From the IMG/VR virus record IMGVR_UViG_2724679514_000002, positions 5,998 through 69,997 of that record: a stretch of DNA of 64,000 nt; one strand, 5' to 3'. A program made the position numbers and the translations under genes. Source of the DNA: a virus (lineage: Duplodnaviria > Caudoviricetes). The notes under the pieces were generated by a model. That model did no database searches, was not told the DNA's origin, and saw nothing but the letters and a program-made list of their open reading frames with translations. Shown in pieces: positions 5,716 through 38,013 of the stretch (within the stretch, counting starts at the first letter, position 1; each line of letters opens with the position of its first letter).

Positions 5716-6168
5716 TTATCCTATTAAGATCCGTTTGTATTGCATTTTGCCCGGTGTCCCAAACGCGTTTAAAACTTCTTTCTTAGGTTTAAATCCAATT
5801 GGTGCAACAGAGACATGGACCCAGGTAACACCCGAAGACGTGCCCTCGTTAATCAATTGGTGGAATGGCAAATTGAGTTTAATAATTTCCTCCACGATGT
5901 TTTTTGTTGTGAGTCCTTGGACGCAAATGTCAGCTGCTTCGCCACTCATATGTTGCGACGTAATGCTCCCTTTCACTTTCCGGTTTACAGCCGGTGATCG
6001 GAATCCTGAGTTTACAATAATCGGTTTATCAATTGCTTGCCTTAGTGGTTCGAGTATTGTTTCACAAAGCCTTTTTAGATTTGCAATTTGGCGTTCATCA
6101 GGATTATTCTCAAGACCTGTTTGTGTAACGGTCATTTCTTTTAATGTAAAATTTTCAGTTAGATTCAT
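5716..6168 (-). CDS. peptidase M15A family endolysin
   Basis: SGFRSPAVN...SQHMSGEAADI...WVHVS zinc-binding motifs. Confidence 0.9.
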   Translation of the reverse strand: MNLTENFTLKEMTVTQTGLENNPDERQIANLKRLCETILEPLRQAIDKPIIVNSGFRSPAVNRKVKGSITSQHMSGEAADICVQGLTTKNIVEEIIKLNLPFHQLINEGTSSGVTWVHVSVAPIGFKPKKEVLNAFGTPGKMQYKRILIG

Positions 6169-23622: not shown

Positions 23623-24365
23623 ATTTTTTTCTTCTTTAAATAGGCTTCTTTTAAATCTAAAGTTAATGCTTCTGCTAGGTTTTTTAAGAATTCTGAATTT
23701 CTTAAAATCCTATCCGCTTCTTCTTGCATTCTTTGGACAAATTTTTGTCCTTTAATTTCTGGGTAAGGCTCCCAATTCGAATCTTCCGTTAACACTACCA
23801 TCTTGCTAGCACTGGTGGAGCTTCCACCTCGTTCATTTAACTGCTGAAATTTTACAGTGTTTGAACGTGAATTTCTTTCAACCTTTTCGATCGAATATGA
23901 ATTTCTTTTAACCTTTCCGCCCATTGGAGAAGAAACTTTTGAAGTCGAAAGGATCTTCAATACAGAAGAAGCAGATTCTTTTTCTTTTCCTTTCATTGGT
24001 ATAATCAAAAATTTCTTACCCCTTGCATTAATTCTAACTTTCTTGGAATTAGATAGTAAATAAGAAGCAATATCAAAAGCACGCCTTCCGGTTTCAGCAA
24101 CCTTTTCGAAATTATAAGCAGACTGATTGCTATCATAATAAATTCTAAATCCTAAACCGAATTTTTTTATTTTGATTTGTCCATTTGCTAGATATTGTTG
24201 TCCCCACCAACCTAATCCGCCATTTTTGATGGAAACTTCAGAACGTTTTCCAGCCATAAATTCCCATTTTTCTCGTATTTCAATCGCTACAGAACCAAGT
24301 ACCGCGTAAAAACGAGGAAACATAGCAGGGTTAGATTTTATTTTACTCAAAATAGAATCTAACAT
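23619..24365 (-). CDS. putative neck/tail completion protein
   Basis: VAETGRRAFDI, KKFLIIPM, WEPYPEIKG patterns; basic; synteny. Confidence 0.5.
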   Translation of the reverse strand: MLDSILSKIKSNPAMFPRFYAVLGSVAIEIREKWEFMAGKRSEVSIKNGGLGWWGQQYLANGQIKIKKFGLGFRIYYDSNQSAYNFEKVAETGRRAFDIASYLLSNSKKVRINARGKKFLIIPMKGKEKESASSVLKILSTSKVSSPMGGKVKRNSYSIEKVERNSRSNTVKFQQLNERGGSSTSASKMVVLTEDSNWEPYPEIKGQKFVQRMQEEADRILRNSEFLKNLAEALTLDLKEAYLKKKKI

Positions 24366-26206
24366 CTTTTTGAAAATTTGTTAGAAAGTGCTTCAATTGA
24401 TTTTACACGATTATAATATACCGGAAATTTCTGTAAAAGTTCTGGATAATTCTTAAGGACTTTAACAGGAATTTTTTCTCCTGCTTTCATTGCATTTTCA
24501 ACGAACTCTCTATCTTCTTCTGGAGAAGCATCACTATGTTCTTTGGCTGAAATTAACCTCCAGCCATTCCCTTCTTTTTCGTAAGTATTTCCATCTGAAA
24601 AGGTATGGATGTTGTTTGGATTATCTGATTCAGAACCTTTTATGAATTGATAAGTAAAAATTGGTCTTGTTTCAAAAGATTTTGCATAAGCCAAATCATG
24701 TGGTGCAAAAAGAAATTCGCTTCCCGATGGAAGTTTTATTTTGATCATATTATCAACCTTACCCAAAACCTCAGCGATATGACCTCGATTGATTTTACCA
24801 TTATTTGGTCGTTCAACTCTAACAATATCTCCAGGAATAGCGTATTTCACATCGTTTATTTGTGCACGTTTTTCTGGAGGAGTTCTAGCGATTCTTTCCC
24901 TATTCCTCTCTTTTGCTTTTTGTTCAAATTCTTTCCAGCGTCCAAGAACTTCGACGGCTTTTTGTTCGTGTGTAACTGCATGAGACTTAGAACTTCCAGA
25001 GGAAGTCTGAACTTTTCCAGTTGGCTTGAAGTTCTGAGAAGATTCTTTCCCTTTTCCTACTGACTTCCAATCACCACTCGAAGTTTTTTCATGTTGAAGG
25101 CCATCATTCCAAGTTCTTCTTTCTCCAACTTGTGCAGCTTGTGATTTGTGAAAAAAAGCTTCTACTTTTTTTCTCGTATCTGAATTATTAAGCCAACAAA
25201 TAAATTGATTGATAGTCATAGAGACATGATCTCCATATCCTTTCCAACCTTTTTCATAACAAGAATTGTATCCGACTATTGCTTCATATTCTGAATCAAA
25301 TCCGAGCATAACTTTGTGTTCATCAAACTTACTTGTATTTGGGTCAATTTGATTGATTACAAAAACGATTTCAGATTTTGGATTCGGTCCTATAAAAACA
25401 TCCACATGATCTCCATCATTTCCAGTCGAACCCTTTATATATCCATAATGGTGATTCATTTTAGTTTCCCAAGATTTACCATCCGAGTCGATTCCTTTTC
25501 GACTGGTTCCGGCTGGATTCTCAATTGTAATGGGAAGATTGTGAATCTTGATATGTTTTTTTTTATAATTGCCAGCTTTCTTTTGTGCTTCAGTGGGACT
25601 TGAGTTTACATCTTCCTTACTTATTTTTAAGGAAGATGACTTTTTGTATTCTTTCGCATCTACCCATGATGCGAAATTCTGAATTTCTTCTGTCTCTGGA
25701 AAGATCCCTTGAAACTGAATTCCGCGGTCATCCAAATATAAATGTGCAGGAATTTTATCCGCAGAATACTGAAAAAGATTAGAAAATTTACTCATTTTTG
25801 GAACGCCAAGATTTCGGGCGTATCTTGATTGCCTCCACTCACTTTGATGGGTATCAAAAAAATTTTTTATAGCTTTAATGCCTTTTTCTTCCAAACAACG
25901 GGTAGAATGAATTACTATGTAGAAAAGATTAGAATTTTTGAATAACCAATCAAATGCGCCCTCAACCGGAGGATCCGGTATATTATCGATTCCTTGCCAT
26001 CCGCTCGAATAAGAATGGATAACTCCATCGAAGTCTACACAAATCGTTTTCTTACCTTCAGACTTCTTGTATTTTTTTTTAAAGAATCCTTTAAAATCCT
26101 TTTGAAAACTATTTTTCTTAAACTTAGATAAAGAATCTTTTATTGTAGCAGCACCATTTGTAAGCGCAGCCACATCCGTTATACCCTGAGAGTTTGCGTT
26201 GAACAT
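24359..26206 (-). CDS. multidomain protein: capsid-derived N-terminal peptide, HAD-like phosphatase, inorganic pyrophosphatase-like domain and further modules
   Basis: TICVDFDGVIH...YLDDRG (HAD); PTEAQKKAGNYKK...YGYIKGSTGNDGDHVDVFIG...FDEHKVMLGF (iPPase domain of polyvalent proteins); GAGGA SD. Confidence 0.8.
   Translation of the reverse strand: MFNANSQGITDVAALTNGAATIKDSLSKFKKNSFQKDFKGFFKKKYKKSEGKKTICVDFDGVIHSYSSGWQGIDNIPDPPVEGAFDWLFKNSNLFYIVIHSTRCLEEKGIKAIKNFFDTHQSEWRQSRYARNLGVPKMSKFSNLFQYSADKIPAHLYLDDRGIQFQGIFPETEEIQNFASWVDAKEYKKSSSLKISKEDVNSSPTEAQKKAGNYKKKHIKIHNLPITIENPAGTSRKGIDSDGKSWETKMNHHYGYIKGSTGNDGDHVDVFIGPNPKSEIVFVINQIDPNTSKFDEHKVMLGFDSEYEAIVGYNSCYEKGWKGYGDHVSMTINQFICWLNNSDTRKKVEAFFHKSQAAQVGERRTWNDGLQHEKTSSGDWKSVGKGKESSQNFKPTGKVQTSSGSSKSHAVTHEQKAVEVLGRWKEFEQKAKERNRERIARTPPEKRAQINDVKYAIPGDIVRVERPNNGKINRGHIAEVLGKVDNMIKIKLPSGSEFLFAPHDLAYAKSFETRPIFTYQFIKGSESDNPNNIHTFSDGNTYEKEGNGWRLISAKEHSDASPEEDREFVENAMKAGEKIPVKVLKNYPELLQKFPVYYNRVKSIEALSNKFSKRC
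26143..26203 (-). repeat. 61-bp direct repeat of capsid gene segment 27624-27684
   Basis: 56/61 identical by manual alignment. Confidence 0.95.
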
Positions 26207-26216
26207 AAATCCTCAT

Positions 26217-26246
26217 ATAAAAAAGGGCAGAGTAAACTGCCCTTTT
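26217..26246 (-). terminator. intrinsic terminator after the major capsid gene
   Basis: AAAAGGGCAG-tttact-CTGCCCTTTT followed by more T on the - strand. Confidence 0.85.
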
Positions 26247-26271
26247 AAATTCAATTTTTAGAATACCTTCT

Positions 26272-27837
26272 TTACGTCACAGACATCGAAGTTGGTAGAT
26301 TCTTTATAAGGTAAAAGCGGTAGGGTTGTAACACCGCAAGTCCGCCATAAAATTCGACCATACCAGCCAGTTTTCTTTGATAAACCGCATTATTAGGGGC
26401 AAATTTTGTCTGAAGCATCGGTAACATCCGAAGCATCTGGTAAGTTCTTGTTTGGTCTAACGGAGATTGTGCATTAAAATCACCAATTACACCTTCGGTG
26501 CAACCAGGAATCCATTCATTCACATCAGAATAAACTGTTGTCATTCCACCGGATTTCCCAATTCGTTCCGTTAATCTAAAATCACCATTTCCCGGACGAG
26601 TTTCTCTGAATATTTGATAATAATCTGCAACTTCTCCCGATCCAGCAGGTGTTATTGTAAGCACGATGGACCTACCTTTTACCATAACACCTGGAGTAGT
26701 TACTATACTAGAAGCCGCACTTCTACCATATCGATTACATGCTACAATTCTGTAACTGATTGCAGAATCAGAATTAGATGAATCTTTGATGTCAGCTGGC
26801 TTCCATTTGGATCCAAAAATAGAACCTCCTGAAATAACCGCAGTTGCAGTTGGCTGATCTGGAGCCTTTGCGTGCGTTTTTCCGGGAATCTCTATATTAT
26901 TTGCATCTTTGTAAGTAGGAAGTGGAACAAGGTGCCTGCTCATCCAAAGATCTGTTTTGAAATCCAATTTACTGTTACGCAATGGTGCTCCAATCAAACC
27001 TGGAATGTCGTAACCGATAGTAGGGTTTCCGTTGGAAGGCTGTGCAATAAATTCCTTAGCACCTACATAATAATTGTCTAATACGTTCTTGACGGAATCA
27101 TGTAACCAGAGTTCGTTTACGAAACCAAAATGTGTTCGAATGTTTACAGCCAGTTCTTTGATTATTTTTAAATCTGGAAATCCTCCTTGTGCATCATAAA
27201 CTTGTCCAGCATTTACAAGTTCAGTCACGAAACCGTCGAATTCAAGTCCATTGATCCCTTTGTTCCCATACCAAGTTGCATAGGCAAGGGTTTTCATGAT
27301 TCTGTTAATTGCACCCTGAATCTGAATGTTTTCAGGATCATACGAACCACCACTACGATCAGACATGTCTAAGACTTTAGAAACGGCATAACCTTCTGCA
27401 AGGTACGATACAACTTTTGAAATTCGATCAATCGTTACATCCTTAAATTCCGCATCATCCGACTCACCAACGAACGAAAAATCTCCGTTTCCACCCCAAT
27501 CCAAAATTCTTGCATAAACATTCAGAGTAGATTTCGTATCCTTGTAATGCATCGTATTTAAGAAATTGTATTCATTGCTGTTTTGAGCAAATAGCACCAT
27601 TTCTTCGTCTAGAGAGTGTATGGTTGTAGCAGCGCCATTTGTAAGCGCGGTCACATCCGTTATACCTTGAGAGTTTGCGTTAAAAGTTTTAGCAAAAGCG
27701 GTTAATTGTTTGAGGTCTGTAAATGTTGCTGGAACTAATCCAAGCACAACGTTAGAAGGATCTCCAAAACCTAGAAGATTCCCAGCCACCAAAAAAGTAA
27801 ACGAAGCTAAAACTAGCCAAAAATTTTTAAGTATCAT
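26272..27837 (-). CDS. major capsid protein (Herelleviridae/A511-like family)
   Basis: KTFNANSQGIT...SLDEEM and IMKTLAYATWYG...GLEFDG...VYDAQG resemble A511/K-type capsid proteins (recalled); follows protease and scaffold genes. Confidence 0.8.
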   Translation of the reverse strand: MILKNFWLVLASFTFLVAGNLLGFGDPSNVVLGLVPATFTDLKQLTAFAKTFNANSQGITDVTALTNGAATTIHSLDEEMVLFAQNSNEYNFLNTMHYKDTKSTLNVYARILDWGGNGDFSFVGESDDAEFKDVTIDRISKVVSYLAEGYAVSKVLDMSDRSGGSYDPENIQIQGAINRIMKTLAYATWYGNKGINGLEFDGFVTELVNAGQVYDAQGGFPDLKIIKELAVNIRTHFGFVNELWLHDSVKNVLDNYYVGAKEFIAQPSNGNPTIGYDIPGLIGAPLRNSKLDFKTDLWMSRHLVPLPTYKDANNIEIPGKTHAKAPDQPTATAVISGGSIFGSKWKPADIKDSSNSDSAISYRIVACNRYGRSAASSIVTTPGVMVKGRSIVLTITPAGSGEVADYYQIFRETRPGNGDFRLTERIGKSGGMTTVYSDVNEWIPGCTEGVIGDFNAQSPLDQTRTYQMLRMLPMLQTKFAPNNAVYQRKLAGMVEFYGGLAVLQPYRFYLIKNLPTSMSVT

Positions 27838-27840
27838 CTT

Positions 27841-28563
27841 CTAGTTCCCTCCTTGTGAAGATTTTAAAAATAATTTTGCAGGTTCTGTGAGAATTCCTTG
27901 AGACTTGTAAGTCTGAAGATCACTGATACCAAGAACTTTATCCTGAGCACCCTTGAAGAGAAGTTTTATGATCTGTTCTCGAGAACCGAGTTGGTTCTCA
28001 GGAATCTGGTCACCCGTAGTTATAGAATGCTTTCCATCCTTAGGCAATCCACCAAGGTTTTTAATTTCTGATTTTAGAAACTCTATTTCGGTTTTGAAAC
28101 CAGAGATTTGTTTTTCGGAAGTTTCATTATCTTTAATTAAAAGCGCTAGTACTGCACCGTATTCTTTGTCTCTTTTGGATATAGAGTTTAAAGACTTACT
28201 GAAGGATTTCAATTCTGTCCTAAGTTTTAAAGAAGCAAAGCCTCCTTTCTCCATTGCCTTATCGGGCTCGGTATCAGTTGGCTTGCCTTCATCAACGATT
28301 TCTTTGATCGTATCCCAAACAGTTTGAGAATCTTCATCCCCAAGACCATTCGCTTTGCACCATTGTTTTATGGCTGATTCCTCGACCTTGACCTCGCCTT
28401 TTTCAATCGCTGATTGAAGTTTTGAAATAAGCTCGTCAGTGATCGCGGATTCCGAATCATCATCGTCTTCATCTGATTCGCCCTCGTCTGGTGGTGGAGG
28501 GGCGTCCGATTTCATAAACGGACTCAAAAAACCTTCCTTCCATTGTTTGAATTTATCTTTCAT
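27841..28563 (-). CDS. putative scaffold protein
   Basis: Acidic, coiled-coil-like; between protease and capsid genes. Confidence 0.6.
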   Translation of the reverse strand: MKDKFKQWKEGFLSPFMKSDAPPPPDEGESDEDDDDSESAITDELISKLQSAIEKGEVKVEESAIKQWCKANGLGDEDSQTVWDTIKEIVDEGKPTDTEPDKAMEKGGFASLKLRTELKSFSKSLNSISKRDKEYGAVLALLIKDNETSEKQISGFKTEIEFLKSEIKNLGGLPKDGKHSITTGDQIPENQLGSREQIIKLLFKGAQDKVLGISDLQTYKSQGILTEPAKLFLKSSQGGN

Positions 28564-28581: not shown

Positions 28582-29463
28582 TTAACCTTTTTGGCATAAA
28601 TGAACTAAAAGTTTAAGAGCTTGGTCGTTCGATTCTTCTACACTAAGTCCGAATCTCATCATGAAATTTCGAATTTCTTCATAATCCGGTTTTAAGATCC
28701 CAGCTTCCATATATTTGATAAGTGAATCAGAAACGTAATCTCTATATCCCCATGACTGAAGAATGTATTTTAAAATTGCTTCATTGGTATTTTCAGGGAT
28801 AGGCGGAAGTGTTTCGATTTTATCAACAACAATTTCGCTCGGAGACGAAATGATTCCGGTGAGACCTGAATTGAATGTTTGCCCAAGAACTGATTTCATT
28901 AAAACCATTTGTGTATTTGGATTTATAGCTTCGCCAGGCGGACAGATGGCGATGTGACTAATTCTTGCGCGATCATAAGTGTTTGGGCCGTATTTAGAAA
29001 TTGTTTCTGGTCTTGGTGCATAAAAACCGCCCGCAGCAGAAGTTTCTAACCCTGTGAACCCATCCTCCAACAAGGGAATATACGGTTTGATGAAATCGCT
29101 TTCTGAATTAATTCTCGCCTTGCAATAAAGACCATCATTATCCCAAAAATAATCACTAATTGGACGACCAATAACCGCGCTCTGTCTTGCTTTTTCGATT
29201 TCTGCACGATTGATTGGAGAATCTGATTTCGAAAAATTTAATACATAAGAAAGATGATTCCAATCTATATAAGATTTTGTTTTAAAGTATTCCTTATCCT
29301 CCGGATGATCCCAAGCGCATTTTAGAATCATATCGCCCTGTCGATCCCTCGTTTCGCTTGAGATTTTCAAAAGGACGTTAAGCATTTTTCCATCTTTCTC
29401 AATCTCTTGAATTTGTGCCGATTTAAGAAATGGCCGCCCTTGAAATTTATTGAAATCACTCAC
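28582..29463 (-). CDS. prohead protease
   Basis: ISSETRDRQGDMI, YIDWNH, ETSAAG, ISHIAICPPGEAINPNT. Confidence 0.75.
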   Translation of the reverse strand: MSDFNKFQGRPFLKSAQIQEIEKDGKMLNVLLKISSETRDRQGDMILKCAWDHPEDKEYFKTKSYIDWNHLSYVLNFSKSDSPINRAEIEKARQSAVIGRPISDYFWDNDGLYCKARINSESDFIKPYIPLLEDGFTGLETSAAGGFYAPRPETISKYGPNTYDRARISHIAICPPGEAINPNTQMVLMKSVLGQTFNSGLTGIISSPSEIVVDKIETLPPIPENTNEAILKYILQSWGYRDYVSDSLIKYMEAGILKPDYEEIRNFMMRFGLSVEESNDQALKLLVHLCQKG

Positions 29464-32826: not shown

Positions 32827-35800
32827 TCATGCAGATTTCAAAAATCGTTTTAATATAAACCTGTTTTTAATCTCTATATCCAAACCAAAAGATTTTCTAA
32901 ACTCATTGATTCCAGCTACAGACAAAAGATCACTTACATGTTTTTTAACAATCATGTCTATGGTTTCATTTGCTTTGTTCTTTTCTCTCTCTTCGAGTTC
33001 TTTTGTGAATTTGGATATATACTCTTCTTTCTTACTCCCTAGAATTTCATGGACCTTTTCTGATAATTTATCAGAATCGCTTAGAAGTTTGTTTGCTTCT
33101 GCTTCAGCTTTATCCAAATCACTTAGTCCTTTTCTTTCTAGATTTTCTTCGTTTCTTTTTAATTTCGCTTTTTTGAGTGATAATCGTGTATTCAAATCCT
33201 GGATTGTCTTCTTTTGATAATTAATAGCAAGTTCAGAACGCGGTCCATAGCTTTCATAGCGTCCGGCCTCTTTGAGTTTGTTAAACTCTTCTACATTTTC
33301 TTTTAGTTCTTTTTTTTCTTTATTTAGCCAGTCCTCTTCGTTATTAATTACCTTTCTTAGTTCTTTAATTTCATCGACAATACCTTGTAGCGAAAATGAT
33401 CGGCCTTGAAGATCCTTAGCCTCTTGCCTCACCTTTGCAGCTTCTTCGTTAACCACAAATGCCGCTTTTCGTTTAGGATCTCTAATGATTTCTGTTTTTA
33501 ATTCTTCTGGATTTATATCTGAGACATCTATTGCAGCTGATCCACTTTTCTCAAAAATCTGATTGATACGCGAAATCTTTTCAGATTGTTTTTGATAAAG
33601 TTTTGAATCAATGGAATCTTCCATTAAAATATCGATCCATTGAACATCTTTTTGTAAATTTCCAGGCCTATGGTGCCTTCCTCTTTTCTGCACTTCTGTT
33701 GTCGGATTCCAATCGATGGAAGCATTATACGCCGCAATCGTATTATTATTCAAAGATACGCCTTCTTTTATAACGTCTGATCCAATAAGAATTTTACAAG
33801 GATGTTTGCTGGAATTAAATTGATCAGATATTTCTGTAAACCTAGACAAACCTTGTTTTGCTAGTTCTGGATCTTTTGCCTTTTTAATTTTAGTGTCCGA
33901 TGTTAAAATTCCGATCGCATCCTCTGGAATCCCATGTTTTTCCATTAGATATTGTTTAATTTTCGAAATGTATTCAACACCTTTTGGCATAAACATTAGT
34001 TGGCCTGGAATTCTTTCTCCGGGCTTAGATTTTTTATATTGATTGTAAAATTCCGCAAGGGAATCCGCGATGAATTGTAGTTTCGGTGATCTTTCTACAA
34101 TATTCTTATCGCCTTCAGGATTAATTTCCCCTATGTAATTCCAAACATCGCCTTCGCCTTTTTTGACTAATGCGGGAGAAATATTCATCATTTGTTGAGT
34201 TAGAATAGAAACTAAAGGTGCGCCTCCAAGTGCAATTCCGGAGGCGGATTTCAGATCATACATTGACTCAAGTTGATTGCGTATCATTTCTTGTTCTTTT
34301 GTTAAGGGGAGGGTGATTGCTTTCATTTTTAAATTGGGTCGCTCCACTCCGTTTTTATCTCCTGACTGAAAATCAAAATACTCAGAAATCAAATTTTGCA
34401 ACGCTGGTGCATTTTTAAAAGAACGGACAACTTGCTTATTCACTACCTGTCCGTTCCCTTCTATCACGTTTTCATATCGAGTTTCTACGAAAGTTCCTAA
34501 AAAATCTCGAATATTCGTTATGCCCATTTTTTCCATTCTTTTTTTTGCAACGATCGAAAGAAGCGAGTATATCTGTAGAGGATTGTTAGTAAATGGTGTA
34601 GCACTTAGTAATAAAACGTTTCGATCGTTATTTTTTTCAAGGATATGCCTTGCGGCTAACCATAGTTTAATTCCTCGAGCGGAGGGCGTGCCTCCTGTTA
34701 TTCCATCAAACTCATTGGCTCCAGTATCATCTCCTCGGCTCTTCAATTTATTTTCAGTCCTACCTTTAGTCGATGCGACATCCACAAAAATGTTATTAAA
34801 ATTGTGCGCTTCGTCGATGGTGATATGGTCAAATCCAATCTTATCAAAAAATAAATCTGATCGGGTACCCTTAACGGCTTCCGAAACTATTGAATTAGAT
34901 TTTTCATCCATTTGAGCTTTTTCTCTTTTATTTTCTTTTGCAATATCTGGATTGTATATTTGATCTCGCACTTCGTTTGTAAGTTCTTCGTATCTTTCGT
35001 TGCTAAATCCAAATTGGGTGAATGCGTCATAGGACATGATTGTAACAACTCCTTCTTCCACCTGGAAACCATTCTCAGACTTGTTTAAATTATTCAATTC
35101 TGGAGATCCTACCATCTGAATCGGCACGTTCGGAAATCGTTCTTTAAATTCTAGGGCCCAGTTTTGCAATACAGAAGTCGGAACAATAATCAAAGGCTTT
35201 TTACACTTACCTGATTGCATCGCTGAAACGTTTGATGCCATACCTGTCCATGTTTTACCTAGACCAACCTCGTGAGTTGCACACCCAACCCCCTGCGCCA
35301 TATATCTAGATATGAAGTTTGTTTGCGTTGGTCTAAGATCTTGCCTGTTCCCTTTATAAAATTTAGACATCCCCTCTAATACAACTGGTATATTTGATCC
35401 ATCTAAATTAACTACGGAGTTAAATTGCTCATTCCATTTTTTTGTTAAATCCTCACGTTCTTCAGTACTTAATGATTCCTGAATGAACTGTTGAAAAAGT
35501 TTATTCCCAATCTCTTTCCTCTCCTTCTTTTTTAATTTATTTGTTTCTATTTTTGTAGATTCACCCGTAGCCCTATCATAAACCACATCGTTTCTTCCTG
35601 TTACCTTTTCACCGCTTAGGTATGCAAGAATATCTGATTTTGTAATTGTATAATTCATAAAATATTCATTTGGAAGACCACCTTCATAATCCATTATTTT
35701 TCCTATATTTTTCCCGTAGCGCCCTAAAACCGGTTCCCCCAAAATAAATTTTTTGAATTTTTCGATTAAGCTAGTATTATCTTCGAATATAAACCCTTTT

Positions 35801-38013
35801 GCAAATGGTTCGATTGGTGTTAGAATAATATTTTCAAGTTTTACTTTTTCTGGTAATGCTGATTCTAATAGTTTTTTTTGTTTCGTATATTCCTCTGAAC
35901 TTAGAATATCCTTTTCTATTTCTAGTGTTCTAAGTTTTTCAGTTAAATCCCCGGACGCATAAATAAAATCTGGATATATTTCGTTATTCATTTTTGACAT
36001 TTTATTAATGTCAAAAACTTGAGAGTCAGGGAGAGAACCTGTTGGCAGTATGTTACGAACCATGTCTAAATCAACTTGGTCGTATTTTTTACCATATTTC
36101 TGTATAAATTCGTCTTGTGTGTATAAATCTTTGGGATCAATCTTCTTATCTTCGCCTATCGTGTTTCGAACCGCATTAGATATTTTTTCTTTAGTCTCTC
36201 TTTTTTTATTTACCTTCTTTGCCTCCGATACGGATTTTAAAACTTGTTTACCTTTTGCATTCGTATTTCCTATTAAACCTTCAGAAATTGCCGCTTTTTG
36301 TTCTTCACTCATTTCAGTTTGAAGCGGCAATTTGAAATTTAAGAAATCAGTAATATCTCCTTTAACATAGTCCTCTTCTTTTCCGAATCGGTTTTTTCTT
36401 TTTTCGATCGAACCAAAAACATGTTCAGGTTTTTTTTCAAAGTATTTTCCGGAGAAAGCCAGTGAGTTATCTTTAGAGTTAGTTGTATTTTTTCTTAAAA
36501 CAATTATATCAGTTCCGACCTGAGTATTGCCGAAGGAACCTTCAGGTAAACGATATGCTTCTAACAATTCTGCTTTTTCAAATATTTGATTTTTCCATTT
36601 TTCGTTATTTGCATTTAAAAATGATTGTGGTACTATAAAAGTAAGAATACCTCCTTCTTCCAAAACATCGATCCCTCGATTTATAAAATAATGCTCATAT
36701 CTTTTCCACCCTTTGCCTTCGATGGCTTTATATTTTCCCTCCATTGCTCCGTATGGTGGGTTACCGGCTACAAATTGAAATTTTTTTCCGGTATAATTAT
36801 CCCCAACAGATTTATTTTTATCATTAACAAATAGTGTCTCAAATGCTTTGTCCGATATATTCGCAGTTGGATTTAAGATTTTTGCGATTAAAAAAGCTGT
36901 ATTGTCATCTGGGTTATACTCCATCATATCCCAGTTGTAATTTTTTCCTTTACCTTCTGCAAACCTTCCTATTCCAGCAGAAGGTTCTATCCCACTATCC
37001 CCATCTTTTATGTATCGGGAGAGAATATCTTGCATCTTCTTGACTATATGACGTGGCGTAAGAAATTGATAGAGCATACCTCTGTTTGCATCTACTTCCT
37101 TGTTCGTAGTTTGTCCTCCAGAGCCTTCATATAACCTTAATATATCTTTTTGTTCAGGTGTAATTTGATCATGAGGGATTGTTGATAAGATTTTTTTACA
37201 TTCTAAATTTATTTCATTTTGTTTTTTATTGCTCCAAAGTTCTCGAAAAGTTTTTAGTCCATCAGAAACCTTAAGAGCGACGGACTCCTCCGTCGTCAGT
37301 CGCTCGTTGCCCGAAAGTCCTGAAAAAGATCTACCTCCAGATTTCCGGCTAGCGAGAGAAGATTTTCTAGAGTTGGTTCCAGATTGTCCACTTTGGCCAT
37401 TTTGAGGAGACTCTGAAACACCCAATTTGGATCTCTTGTCAGTAAGGTTTGATAACCCGACTCCTTGATTCTGTTCATTAATTCTGCTTGTATTTCCATT
37501 TGGCTTCTGTTCTCCATATAGATCGTAAAGTAACTTGAATATTGATTTTTTATATGATGACTTTTCGATATTTTGATTCGTATTGTTTGTAGTAAAATTA
37601 GTAATTTGATTCGAATCGGGTTTATTGCCTATTATCTTTGAATTCGTTTTTTTTGCATTCTTTTCCTGGTGGAATTTTGCATCAATTTGGGATTTTATTT
37701 CAAAATATTTTATAAAATGTCTTTTCCACTCTAGAAGCGAAACGCCTTTTGATTTTATTTTATTCGATTCGTATTCGCGCTTTGGAATTGTCTTTGCAAC
37801 ATTCTTATCTGTTCCAAAAAAATTCGTTATCGCTTCTAGAATTGTAGCGAATCTTTTTTTATCCTCATCGTGTTTTTGAATCAATTTCCATTGTTTTGAT
37901 TTTTCACCGGAATCAGAAATTTTTCGATAAATTCCATCTTTACGAATAGATTCCCTTCCAACTTCAAACTTACGCGCTTTTAAAAAACTTTGAATTATCT
38001 CATACTGATTCAT
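32827..38013 (-). CDS. DarB-like N6-adenine methyltransferase plus SNF2/SF2 helicase fusion
   Basis: IEPSAGIGRF and GNPPYG (MTase); HEVGLGKT, IDEAH, LLSATP, QKRGRHHRPG (helicase); 1728 aa in head region. Confidence 0.85.
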   Translation of the reverse strand: MNQYEIIQSFLKARKFEVGRESIRKDGIYRKISDSGEKSKQWKLIQKHDEDKKRFATILEAITNFFGTDKNVAKTIPKREYESNKIKSKGVSLLEWKRHFIKYFEIKSQIDAKFHQEKNAKKTNSKIIGNKPDSNQITNFTTNNTNQNIEKSSYKKSIFKLLYDLYGEQKPNGNTSRINEQNQGVGLSNLTDKRSKLGVSESPQNGQSGQSGTNSRKSSLASRKSGGRSFSGLSGNERLTTEESVALKVSDGLKTFRELWSNKKQNEINLECKKILSTIPHDQITPEQKDILRLYEGSGGQTTNKEVDANRGMLYQFLTPRHIVKKMQDILSRYIKDGDSGIEPSAGIGRFAEGKGKNYNWDMMEYNPDDNTAFLIAKILNPTANISDKAFETLFVNDKNKSVGDNYTGKKFQFVAGNPPYGAMEGKYKAIEGKGWKRYEHYFINRGIDVLEEGGILTFIVPQSFLNANNEKWKNQIFEKAELLEAYRLPEGSFGNTQVGTDIIVLRKNTTNSKDNSLAFSGKYFEKKPEHVFGSIEKRKNRFGKEEDYVKGDITDFLNFKLPLQTEMSEEQKAAISEGLIGNTNAKGKQVLKSVSEAKKVNKKRETKEKISNAVRNTIGEDKKIDPKDLYTQDEFIQKYGKKYDQVDLDMVRNILPTGSLPDSQVFDINKMSKMNNEIYPDFIYASGDLTEKLRTLEIEKDILSSEEYTKQKKLLESALPEKVKLENIILTPIEPFAKGFIFEDNTSLIEKFKKFILGEPVLGRYGKNIGKIMDYEGGLPNEYFMNYTITKSDILAYLSGEKVTGRNDVVYDRATGESTKIETNKLKKKERKEIGNKLFQQFIQESLSTEEREDLTKKWNEQFNSVVNLDGSNIPVVLEGMSKFYKGNRQDLRPTQTNFISRYMAQGVGCATHEVGLGKTWTGMASNVSAMQSGKCKKPLIIVPTSVLQNWALEFKERFPNVPIQMVGSPELNNLNKSENGFQVEEGVVTIMSYDAFTQFGFSNERYEELTNEVRDQIYNPDIAKENKREKAQMDEKSNSIVSEAVKGTRSDLFFDKIGFDHITIDEAHNFNNIFVDVASTKGRTENKLKSRGDDTGANEFDGITGGTPSARGIKLWLAARHILEKNNDRNVLLLSATPFTNNPLQIYSLLSIVAKKRMEKMGITNIRDFLGTFVETRYENVIEGNGQVVNKQVVRSFKNAPALQNLISEYFDFQSGDKNGVERPNLKMKAITLPLTKEQEMIRNQLESMYDLKSASGIALGGAPLVSILTQQMMNISPALVKKGEGDVWNYIGEINPEGDKNIVERSPKLQFIADSLAEFYNQYKKSKPGERIPGQLMFMPKGVEYISKIKQYLMEKHGIPEDAIGILTSDTKIKKAKDPELAKQGLSRFTEISDQFNSSKHPCKILIGSDVIKEGVSLNNNTIAAYNASIDWNPTTEVQKRGRHHRPGNLQKDVQWIDILMEDSIDSKLYQKQSEKISRINQIFEKSGSAAIDVSDINPEELKTEIIRDPKRKAAFVVNEEAAKVRQEAKDLQGRSFSLQGIVDEIKELRKVINNEEDWLNKEKKELKENVEEFNKLKEAGRYESYGPRSELAINYQKKTIQDLNTRLSLKKAKLKRNEENLERKGLSDLDKAEAEANKLLSDSDKLSEKVHEILGSKKEEYISKFTKELEEREKNKANETIDMIVKKHVSDLLSVAGINEFRKSFGLDIEIKNRFILKRFLKSA

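Follow-up and report, generated by a model that had tools for sequence, protein, structure and literature searches.

A copy of the predicted mature capsid N-terminus on a modular head-locus protein of LE1-like Leptospira phages

The capsid and cargo genes and the peptide they share

The window analysed here is a stretch of 64 kb (64,000 nucleotides, positions 5,998 to 69,997 of IMG/VR record IMGVR_UViG_2724679514_000002) taken from a 69,997-base viral record that is rated complete and has direct terminal repeats; it represents a complete LE1-like Leptospira phage. We are concerned with two neighbouring genes on its minus strand, where all features given below are located. The first encodes the major capsid protein (521 amino acids, aa; 26272..27837), which matches phrog_752 (E=2.2e-127) and the PDB chains 5lii_P (E=5.4e-18 across residues 50-514) and 9row_B (E=1.3e-17). 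The second, directly after the capsid gene and between the head and tail genes, encodes a 615-aa modular protein of polyvalent type (24359..26206), here called the cargo protein for its predicted role. It is the homologue of LE1 gp25, matches phrog_23773 (E=6.8e-263) and contains an InPase domain (PF18823, E=5.5e-54). Identity to Leptospira biflexa phage LE1 is 69% for the capsid and 49% for the cargo protein.

The cargo protein begins with a near copy of an internal segment of the capsid. Compared codon by codon, its codons 2-21 (26144..26203; hereafter the tag) match capsid residues 52-71 (27625..27684) in 19 of 20 residues and in 55 of 60 bases, or 56 of 61 when the next base is included; this capsid segment is the N-arm start and either the origin or the counterpart of the tag. 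Four of the five base differences fall at third codon positions and one at a first position, a single T/A codon carrying two of them, and the likeness ends sharply at both edges. These counts bear out those of an earlier reading of the same DNA, made from its letters and open reading frames alone (the sequence-only reading). A tag profile built from relatives, with the window tag left out, matched the window capsid at E = 1.1e-7, the next best of 956 six-frame segments reaching E = 2.8; since the capsid alone was found in this way, a match by chance is excluded. No third copy was detected in the window, nor in 180 kb of LE1-like loci at E <= 1, so that the peptide is confined to capsid and cargo.

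The tag is the true N-terminus of the cargo protein, as the Met is preceded by an in-frame stop at a distance of three codons and by a G-A-G-G word at 5 bases; read-through or frameshifting from the capsid gene was rejected on the same grounds. Between the two genes, a hairpin followed by a U run (26219..26246) has the appearance of a terminator. Its fold reaches -19 kcal/mol (z = -2.86, with 0 of 200 shuffles folding as well), and the LE1 record has a terminator annotated at the same place, in agreement with the terminator that had been read there from the letters. A simple terminator scan did not list this hairpin.

The copied segment stands just after a predicted maturation bond of the capsid, K50|T51 (27685..27690). 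In phmmer alignments, K50 of the window is paired with K24 of 5lii_P, a 463-residue Staphylococcus Twort-like capsid protein, and the alignment offsets place the start of 9row_B, the deposited 439-residue chain of the same protein, at residue 25, one residue on. The bond is thus aligned with the K|S bond that precedes the start of the deposited Staphylococcus chain; the sequence-only reading had named such a bond, just before the homologous sequence, for A511-type capsids, and the Staphylococcus relative supports it. F48 and K50 are invariant in 8 capsids. By homology, we take the window capsid to be matured at K50|T51 and the tag to correspond to its first mature residues. A total of 668 phage records match the capsid, mostly Staphylococcus and Bacillus phages, and the homology to Twort-like and SPO1-like capsid proteins assigns the window to phages with a Herelleviridae-type head module. 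Examples of Staphylococcus Twort-like phages are K, ISP and 812, of which 812 and ISP are among the capsid-match phages listed.

In HK97-fold capsids, the start of the mature N-terminus is the start of the N-arm. For 80alpha, the available parts of PMC5744158 and PMC12749128 describe a procapsid in which a strand of the N-arm joins the sheet under the P-domain; on maturation this strand shifts under the E-loop of a neighbour, and the helix that follows it is held by the scaffold. As to the other side of the bond, the predicted propeptide of the window capsid has 50 residues, the first ~20-25 of which are hydrophobic and membrane-helix-like in all LE1-like capsids (residues 1-49, 27691-27837), and only ~15-25 residues precede the bond in related Staphylococcus and distant Leptospira capsids. 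In some relatives, translation may begin internally, closer to the bond.

The tag in related phages and traces of gene conversion

The LE1-like sample comprises 13 loci taken from viral contigs, Leptospira genomes and a single metagenome record; some of these represent one element that is present in two collections. Labels such as L004, L010 and L037 denote individual loci. Their capsids are 63-86% identical to that of the window. In all 13, the gene after the capsid opens with Met directly followed by a diverged version of the tag, which is identical to the capsid segments at 9-16 of 21 positions. Over the first 49 positions of 9 orthologues, M1, N5, G8, T10, D11, G18, A20 and K48 are invariant, amounting to 6 of 20 positions in the tag versus 1 of 28 in the linker behind it. 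The tag persists even though the HAD-like, InPase and C-terminal modules of the protein vary between orthologues. A recent neutral duplication, which the sequence-only reading had named as its alternative, would be a one-off; presence in 13 of 13 loci speaks for a conserved feature instead.

At the DNA level, the window tag is closer to capsid genes than to its own orthologues. It shares 55 of 60 bases with its own capsid and 52-53 of 60 with the capsids of L004-L008, versus 44-45 of 60 with the orthologous tags of those loci. L004 and L006 have a tract of their own, ~35 bases identical between tag and capsid, whose synonymous variants differ from those of the window tract. These two observations point to repeated gene conversion, and we attribute the near-identity of tag and capsid in the window to a recent event of this kind between repeats 1.5 kb apart. 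Judged by these alignments, the tag itself is ancient and the 19/20 match is a recent homogenisation on top of it. The excess of third-position differences, previously read as a sign of selection on the peptide, is therefore better assigned to recent conversion; the argument for selection comes from the conservation of the tag throughout the clade. The capsids of the L004/L005/L010 group have Ala where others have Thr (aligned with window T63), as do most cargo tags, which suggests that conversion has also run from tag to capsid.

Conversion raises the possibility that the tag is a functionless by-product of recombination, in which part of the capsid 5' region would have been duplicated to form the start of the neighbouring gene, its similarity being upheld by conversion. 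The traces of conversion are clear, both in the excess similarity of the window tag to its own capsid over the tags of its closest relatives and in the separate L004/L006 tract, and a weak co-variation test, given below, is in line with this possibility. It nevertheless appears to us decidedly unlikely. Over a capsid divergence of 37% and repeated shuffling of modules, 13 of 13 loci have kept the tag precisely at the N-terminus. In LE1, L037 and L038, the DNA of tag and capsid has fallen to 20-35 of 60 ungapped matches (an underestimate for L037, which has a one-codon indel), yet the peptide core is kept, a contrast on which we also rejected a role of the repeat at the RNA level. The window tag differs from the L004 capsid segment by 7 bases (53/60 identical), all of them synonymous, so that 20 of 20 residues agree. 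Direct repeats flanking the capsid gene risk its deletion, which is a cost, and independent copies in the proteases of 7 of 7 other phages, presented in the next section, argue for function.

Capsid relatives of this kind occur in 19 of 114 Leptospiraceae genomes (G001-G114) and InPase domains in 20 of 114. The two genome sets almost coincide, with both genes on the same contigs, so that nearly every such prophage has an InPase protein. In the more distant Leptospira prophages, of which 13 loci are listed (L042, L044-L047, L050-L054, L057-L059), this protein is encoded ~18-20 kb from the capsid gene and has a conserved N-terminal region of its own that is not capsid-like, and that may be a different packaging signal.

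Cargo modules, putative cleavage words and the head protease homologue

Behind the tag, the cargo protein is built of modules, whose borders are based on alignments only. A Lys-rich linker (codons 22-49, 26060..26143), delimited in the orthologue alignment, ends in a first Y-K-K-S word (26060-26071) that contains the invariant K48. It is followed by a HAD-like module (codons 50-190, 25637..26059) ending in a second Y-K-K-S word (25637-25648), by the InPase domain, related to type I inorganic pyrophosphatases (residues 206-339, 25190..25591), and by a C-terminal part that is conserved in the alignment of all orthologues (residues 356-615, 24362..25141). The border words of this last part, F-H-K-S (25142-25153), Y-A-K-S (24677-24688) and F-I-K-G (24635-24646), are kept in 9 of 9 orthologues. 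Both enzyme domains had been proposed from the translation. The pyrophosphatase-like one is confirmed by 182.1 bits against a gathering cut-off of 26.8, with 134 of 135 profile positions covered. The HAD phosphatase-like one is a weak assignment: HAD_SAK_2 gives 15.9 bits (E = 0.017), below the cut-off of 27.5, phrog_1238 matches at E = 3.4e-11, a motif I word D-F-D-G-V (D-x-D-G-V) is visible in the translation, and PDB sequences gave no match. Pfam and profile searches assigned the C-terminal part to no family, and the ESM Atlas returned nothing usable for residues 355-615 (TM <= 0.33). A word-indexed protein search with residues 1-49 gave one match only, and no MuF, portal or peptidase domain was found in the cargo protein by Pfam search.

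The set of modules changes from phage to phage. The whole HAD-like module is missing in L010, L035, L037 and L038, and also in L065 and L068 as judged by N-terminal sequences; the InPase module is missing in L004, L006, L007 and L008; and extra C-terminal modules are present in LE1, L035, L037 and L038, among them a ParB-like module in L038 and a P-loop (G-x-x-x-x-G-K-S) in L037. Several effector-type domains in a varying set (InPase strong, HAD-like weak), encoded by a phage gene in a packaging and head context, characterise the protein as one of polyvalent type. LE1 encodes the ParB-like module in a gene of its own behind the cargo gene (gp26); in L038 it is fused to the C-terminus of the tagged cargo protein (L038:7416-10475; L001:9609-12188).

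Along the minus strand, the head module opens with the large terminase and portal genes, followed by two hypothetical genes, the gene of a 1728-aa DarB-like protein and four small or hypothetical genes. Then come a 293-aa protein (28582..29463), a 240-aa scaffold-like protein (27841..28563), the capsid, the cargo protein, three conserved hypothetical genes and the tail sheath. On the basis of remote homology, we consider the 293-aa protein to act as head maturation protease. Searched as a single sequence, it matched no entry of Pfam or NCBIfam and no PDB sequence, and profiles fared no better, Pfam and PDB yielding no significant match. When a profile was run against 1.84 billion representatives, 56 relatives emerged; 52 of them were aligned, and D40, D67, H70, G99 and S142 do not vary among these. 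Compared by hhalign with the annotated head maturation protease of Staphylococcus phage phiIPLA-C1C, this 52-sequence profile reached a probability of 97.6% (E = 2.7e-12) across 227 columns, the His and Ser falling into register; one of the 52 relatives has a weak Peptidase_S78 match (E=0.025). A tblastn search of the phage collection with the protease retrieved 7 Leptospira records only. Structural comparison was set aside: an AlphaFold model (mean pLDDT 57) gave nothing against the PDB in Foldseek at E <= 0.001, and the T4 gp21 protease 5jbl_A, at rank 7 in a wide VIA-align search (Z 4.8, rmsd 4.3, 117 residues), lies within noise and is not used as evidence. The order protease, scaffold-like protein, capsid is that of Herelleviridae-type head modules and recurs in L080, L082 and L084.

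The sequence at the predicted capsid bond belongs to a word, [FY]-x-K-[STG], that is concentrated in a few proteins of the window. Counted in 33 window proteins against 2000 shuffles of each, it is enriched in the cargo protein (7 versus 1.4 expected, p < 0.0005), the scaffold-like protein (4 versus 0.4, p = 0.001), the protease (3 versus 0.3, p = 0.004) and the DarB-like protein (8 versus 2.8, p = 0.009, two of them in the last 25 residues). The capsid has exactly one, at the predicted bond, and the remaining 28 proteins have 0-2 each, none significant. Conservation follows the same pattern: the protease word at residue 12 (F12-x-K14-S15) and the scaffold words at 16, 121 and 162 (four F-x-K-S words in all) are present in 9 of 9 orthologues, and in the cargo protein those at 507 and 521 are strictly kept in 9 of 9, that at 352 in 9 of 9 with A allowed last. 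The cargo words at 46 and 187 flank the HAD-like module and are the exact points of its presence or absence; gains and losses of modules are bounded by such words. The words that the sequence-only reading had listed (YKKS, FHKS, YAKS and FIKG) are all there, at residues 46, 187, 352, 507 and 521, and its view of them as processing sites gains from their position at module borders, their conservation and their enrichment in head-interior proteins only. A K-S pair at 190-191 of the protease, between its catalytic and C-terminal helical parts, is kept in at least 90% of the 52 relatives and is a likely self-cleavage point. The DarB-like protein (Eco57I-type methylase plus SNF2 helicase by Pfam and PHROG matches; 32827..38013) has no capsid-like tag and may be a second processed head cargo.

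The same modules bear on another view of the protein, according to which it would be an assembly factor or a minor capsid protein attached to the shell, replacing the N-arm at some lattice positions, with enzyme modules that act in the producing cell or on the particle. The behaviour of the N-arm start in HK97-fold capsids, which adds a strand to a neighbouring sheet and moves on maturation, leaves room for this, as a free copy could fill the site (PMC5744158, PMC12749128, in the parts available). We attach very little probability to it, given that polyvalent proteins of InPase type are tied to head interiors and portals (PDB 9b41_L; available part of PMC5512222) and that cleavage words between modules fit release rather than anchoring.

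Capsid-like stretches are found on head proteases as well. The first clue was an internal stretch resembling the capsid N-terminus in the Staphylococcus protease, seen in the hhalign output. By BLASTP, the phiIPLA-C1C protease and its own capsid are identical at 27 of 42 positions (E = 3e-13; protease 156-197, capsid 16-57), and those of Pseudomonas phage Dolphis at 23 of 51 (E = 3e-7). Five further phages of different genera, hand-picked from a list spread over the ranking of the 668 capsid matches, also have a copy of the capsid start in the protease: Bacillus phages Bastille (E = 1.6e-4) and SBSphiJ7 (E = 2.8e-7), Enterococcus EF24C (E = 1.6e-8), Morganella Mecenats66 (E = 0.015) and Levilactobacillus ENFP1 (E = 0.001). 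In each of these five, the sole second match to the first 80 capsid residues in a locus of ~10 kb is the protease open reading frame, at ~165-226, directly after x-x-K|S. In 7 of 7 sampled non-Leptospira phages, then, a stretch of the protease within about residues 156-249 repeats the x-x-K|S site and the first mature residues of that phage's capsid, and no other second match occurs in any of the loci of ~10 kb. This stretch, hereafter the box, varies greatly between the phages and yet tracks the cognate capsid every time. With a profile of LE1-like cargo tags, the corresponding segment is recognised in 8 of 57 distant relatives of the protease (E < 0.003, best 1.1e-5). The protease box is an independent parallel to the cargo tag and a feature newly described here. 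In many distant protease relatives, a second K|S or K|A word and a capsid-like box lie 10-40 residues on from the position of the 190-191 pair.

The association of box and bond invites an interpretation in which the box serves docking to the head protease, as an exosite on the primed side of the scissile bond, and is not an address for the prohead; the cargo protein would then reach the prohead otherwise, or only by way of the protease. In capsid and protease, the box always comes directly after the x-x-K|S bond, and in 7 of 7 phages the two travel together in that phage's own version. On the other hand, the N-termini of scaffold and protease and the internal sites of the cargo protein have a K|S word and no box, which makes the box unneeded for recognition; the cargo box is preceded by Met alone, leaving nothing to cut there; and LE1-like proteases have no box. 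We regard docking as an improbable sole function. It overlaps in part with the address reading set out below, as binding to the protease would also bring the cargo protein into the prohead.

A candidate prohead address and known head-targeting systems

The explanation towards which we lean, by a modest degree, is that the tag is a prohead address label on a polyvalent cargo that is subsequently cut by the protease. The cargo protein would be a modular head protein of polyvalent type, composed of tag, Lys-rich linker, HAD-like module, InPase domain and conserved C-terminal part. Its first ~20 residues, an 'N-arm box' copying the start of the mature capsid N-arm, would present a capsid peptide and so bind whatever the start of the capsid N-arm binds during prohead assembly, the candidates being scaffold or core, the inner shell surface, and the protease. 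The protein would be enclosed in the prohead at low copy number, the terminator-like hairpin keeping its amount low relative to the capsid. Inside, the 293-aa protease would cut after the Lys of [FY]-x-K|[STG], a word found at the predicted capsid bond, near the N-termini of protease and scaffold, and at the module borders of the cargo protein. Linker, HAD-like, InPase and C-terminal pieces would result, and the separate enzymes would leave with the DNA. The box is read as an address because the protease must enter the prohead and carries the box in 7 of 7 sampled relatives, and because the class of the cargo protein is predicted to be packaged. The sequence-only reading had already seen in the tag a capsid arm reused to target to the head a polyprotein that is cut and injected. 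Comparison lends partial support to this, through the tag in 13 of 13 loci, the border words, the protease and the 7 of 7 parallels.

Several observations weigh against the address reading. It is from homologies, conservation, motif statistics and conversion tracts that we infer binding of the tag, packaging, cleavage and injection. The window protease has no significant box when compared with the window capsid (best E = 3.5), and the parallel comes from other phages; LE1-like proteases appear to have lost the box, which the cargo protein carries instead. The context of the box differs, after a cleavage site in capsid and protease and only after Met in the cargo protein, and these three instances need not correspond. 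With the tag profile, 2 of the 13 capsids, those of L037 and L068, went undetected. Two of the 7 cargo words, at 256 and 317, fall within the InPase domain; their conservation is poor, and they probably escape cleavage. Co-variation of tag and own capsid, a check proposed with the sequence-only reading, is weak in the LE1-like phages, with a mean of 12.6/21 for own versus 11.9/21 for other capsids and a permutation p = 0.044, or 0.079 without the window, values not corrected for relatedness; it is seen on the proteases, whose box follows the cognate capsid in 7 of 7 phages. Finally, no capsid-like tag was detected in ~58 kb from each of three Leptospira prophages of greater distance, which do have a related capsid and an InPase protein: the capsid-segment profile matches the three capsids only (E <= 4e-21, next best 0.43, among 2906 segments). 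The label is thus not required by every phage with this type of capsid.

A broader proposal, which we put forward far more tentatively, is that the first 20-30 residues of the mature capsid act as a portable 'self-address' throughout the lineage of Herelleviridae-type heads, any bearer being co-assembled into the prohead. The box would fit the site of the capsid N-arm start either at a free N-terminus, as in LE1-like cargo, or after cleavage, as in the capsid and the C-terminal part of the protease. To load a new enzyme, recombination would simply have to join the 5' end of the capsid gene to its gene, and address and capsid would stay matched through gene conversion.

If true, an address of this kind would account for recruitment of the maturation protease across a large phage family, Staphylococcus Twort-like phages among them, and for the loading of a changeable set of nucleotide-directed enzymes by LE1-like phages; it would also supply a short tag, governed by a simple rule, with which proteins could be brought into phage heads. 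A direct test is feasible, since LE1 and its host Leptospira biflexa can be cultivated according to the available part of PMC6078989; the same source mentions a shuttle vector derived from the LE1 replication origin.

Among known systems, the capsid targeting sequence (CTS) of T4 is a short N-terminal peptide that sends IPI-III and Alt into the prohead, where they are processed by the prohead protease before exiting with the DNA (available part of PMC7411985). The cargo tag is N-terminal and conserved, but was found on one cargo gene per genome only, where the T4-type signal is one that otherwise unrelated cargo proteins have in common. It differs in that the CTS is a cleaved propeptide, whereas the LE1-like label copies the first mature residues of the capsid and is kept similar to them by gene conversion; moreover, the CTS is removed at a consensus site directly behind it, and the first [FY]-x-K-S word of the LE1-like cargo protein is at 46-49, 25 residues behind the tag.

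In P1, the N-terminal 30 residues or fewer of DarB, a large multi-domain anti-defence protein, suffice for packaging and can load a reporter, as reported in the available part of PMC9024508. The head module of the window likewise encodes a DarB-like giant protein. That protein lacks a capsid-like tag, and for the P1 signal, which needs helper Dar proteins, the accessible portions of PMC9024508 describe no resemblance to the P1 capsid.

Polyvalent proteins, as surveyed by Iyer, Burroughs, Anand, de Souza and Aravind (2017; PMC5512222, available in part), include InPase among their domains, are predicted to be packaged and processed, and comprise InPase fusions to portals; a solved portal, PDB 9b41_L, has such a fusion. 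The cargo protein shares with them several effector-type domains per polypeptide in a variable set. Where a built-in peptidase or fusion to MuF or portal proteins was proposed for that class, the cargo protein has a capsid-derived tag and predicted protease words instead, which together would serve both purposes. Leptospira is not mentioned in PMC5512222 (0 occurrences).

Two further systems concern proteases and shared sites. In 80alpha, according to the available part of PMC5744158, the capsid and scaffold proteins share an N-terminal site for Prp, a host protease, which is also present in ribosomal protein L27; the part shared in the LE1-like phages lies wholly after the bond, and the 80alpha case involves no cargo enzyme. 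For the SPN3US protease (gp245), a C-terminal propeptide has been proposed to target it into the prohead (PMC7411985). As in the phages sampled here, a part outside the catalytic domain would carry the protease in, and a likeness of that part to the capsid N-terminus is not described for SPN3US in the available part of the same source.

Our literature search found no report of a copy of the capsid N-terminus on a cargo protein or a protease, its coverage of subscription journals being incomplete. A C-terminal targeting region is reportedly present in gp4, the prohead protease of HK97, in work credited to Duda and colleagues in 2013. How heads select their cargo is known for a few models only (T4, P1, HK97), and copying the capsid as a label would amount to another rule, and a very simple one. 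As a kind, labels that target polyvalent cargo to the head are known; among the systems compared, a label that copies the capsid's own mature N-terminus is new.

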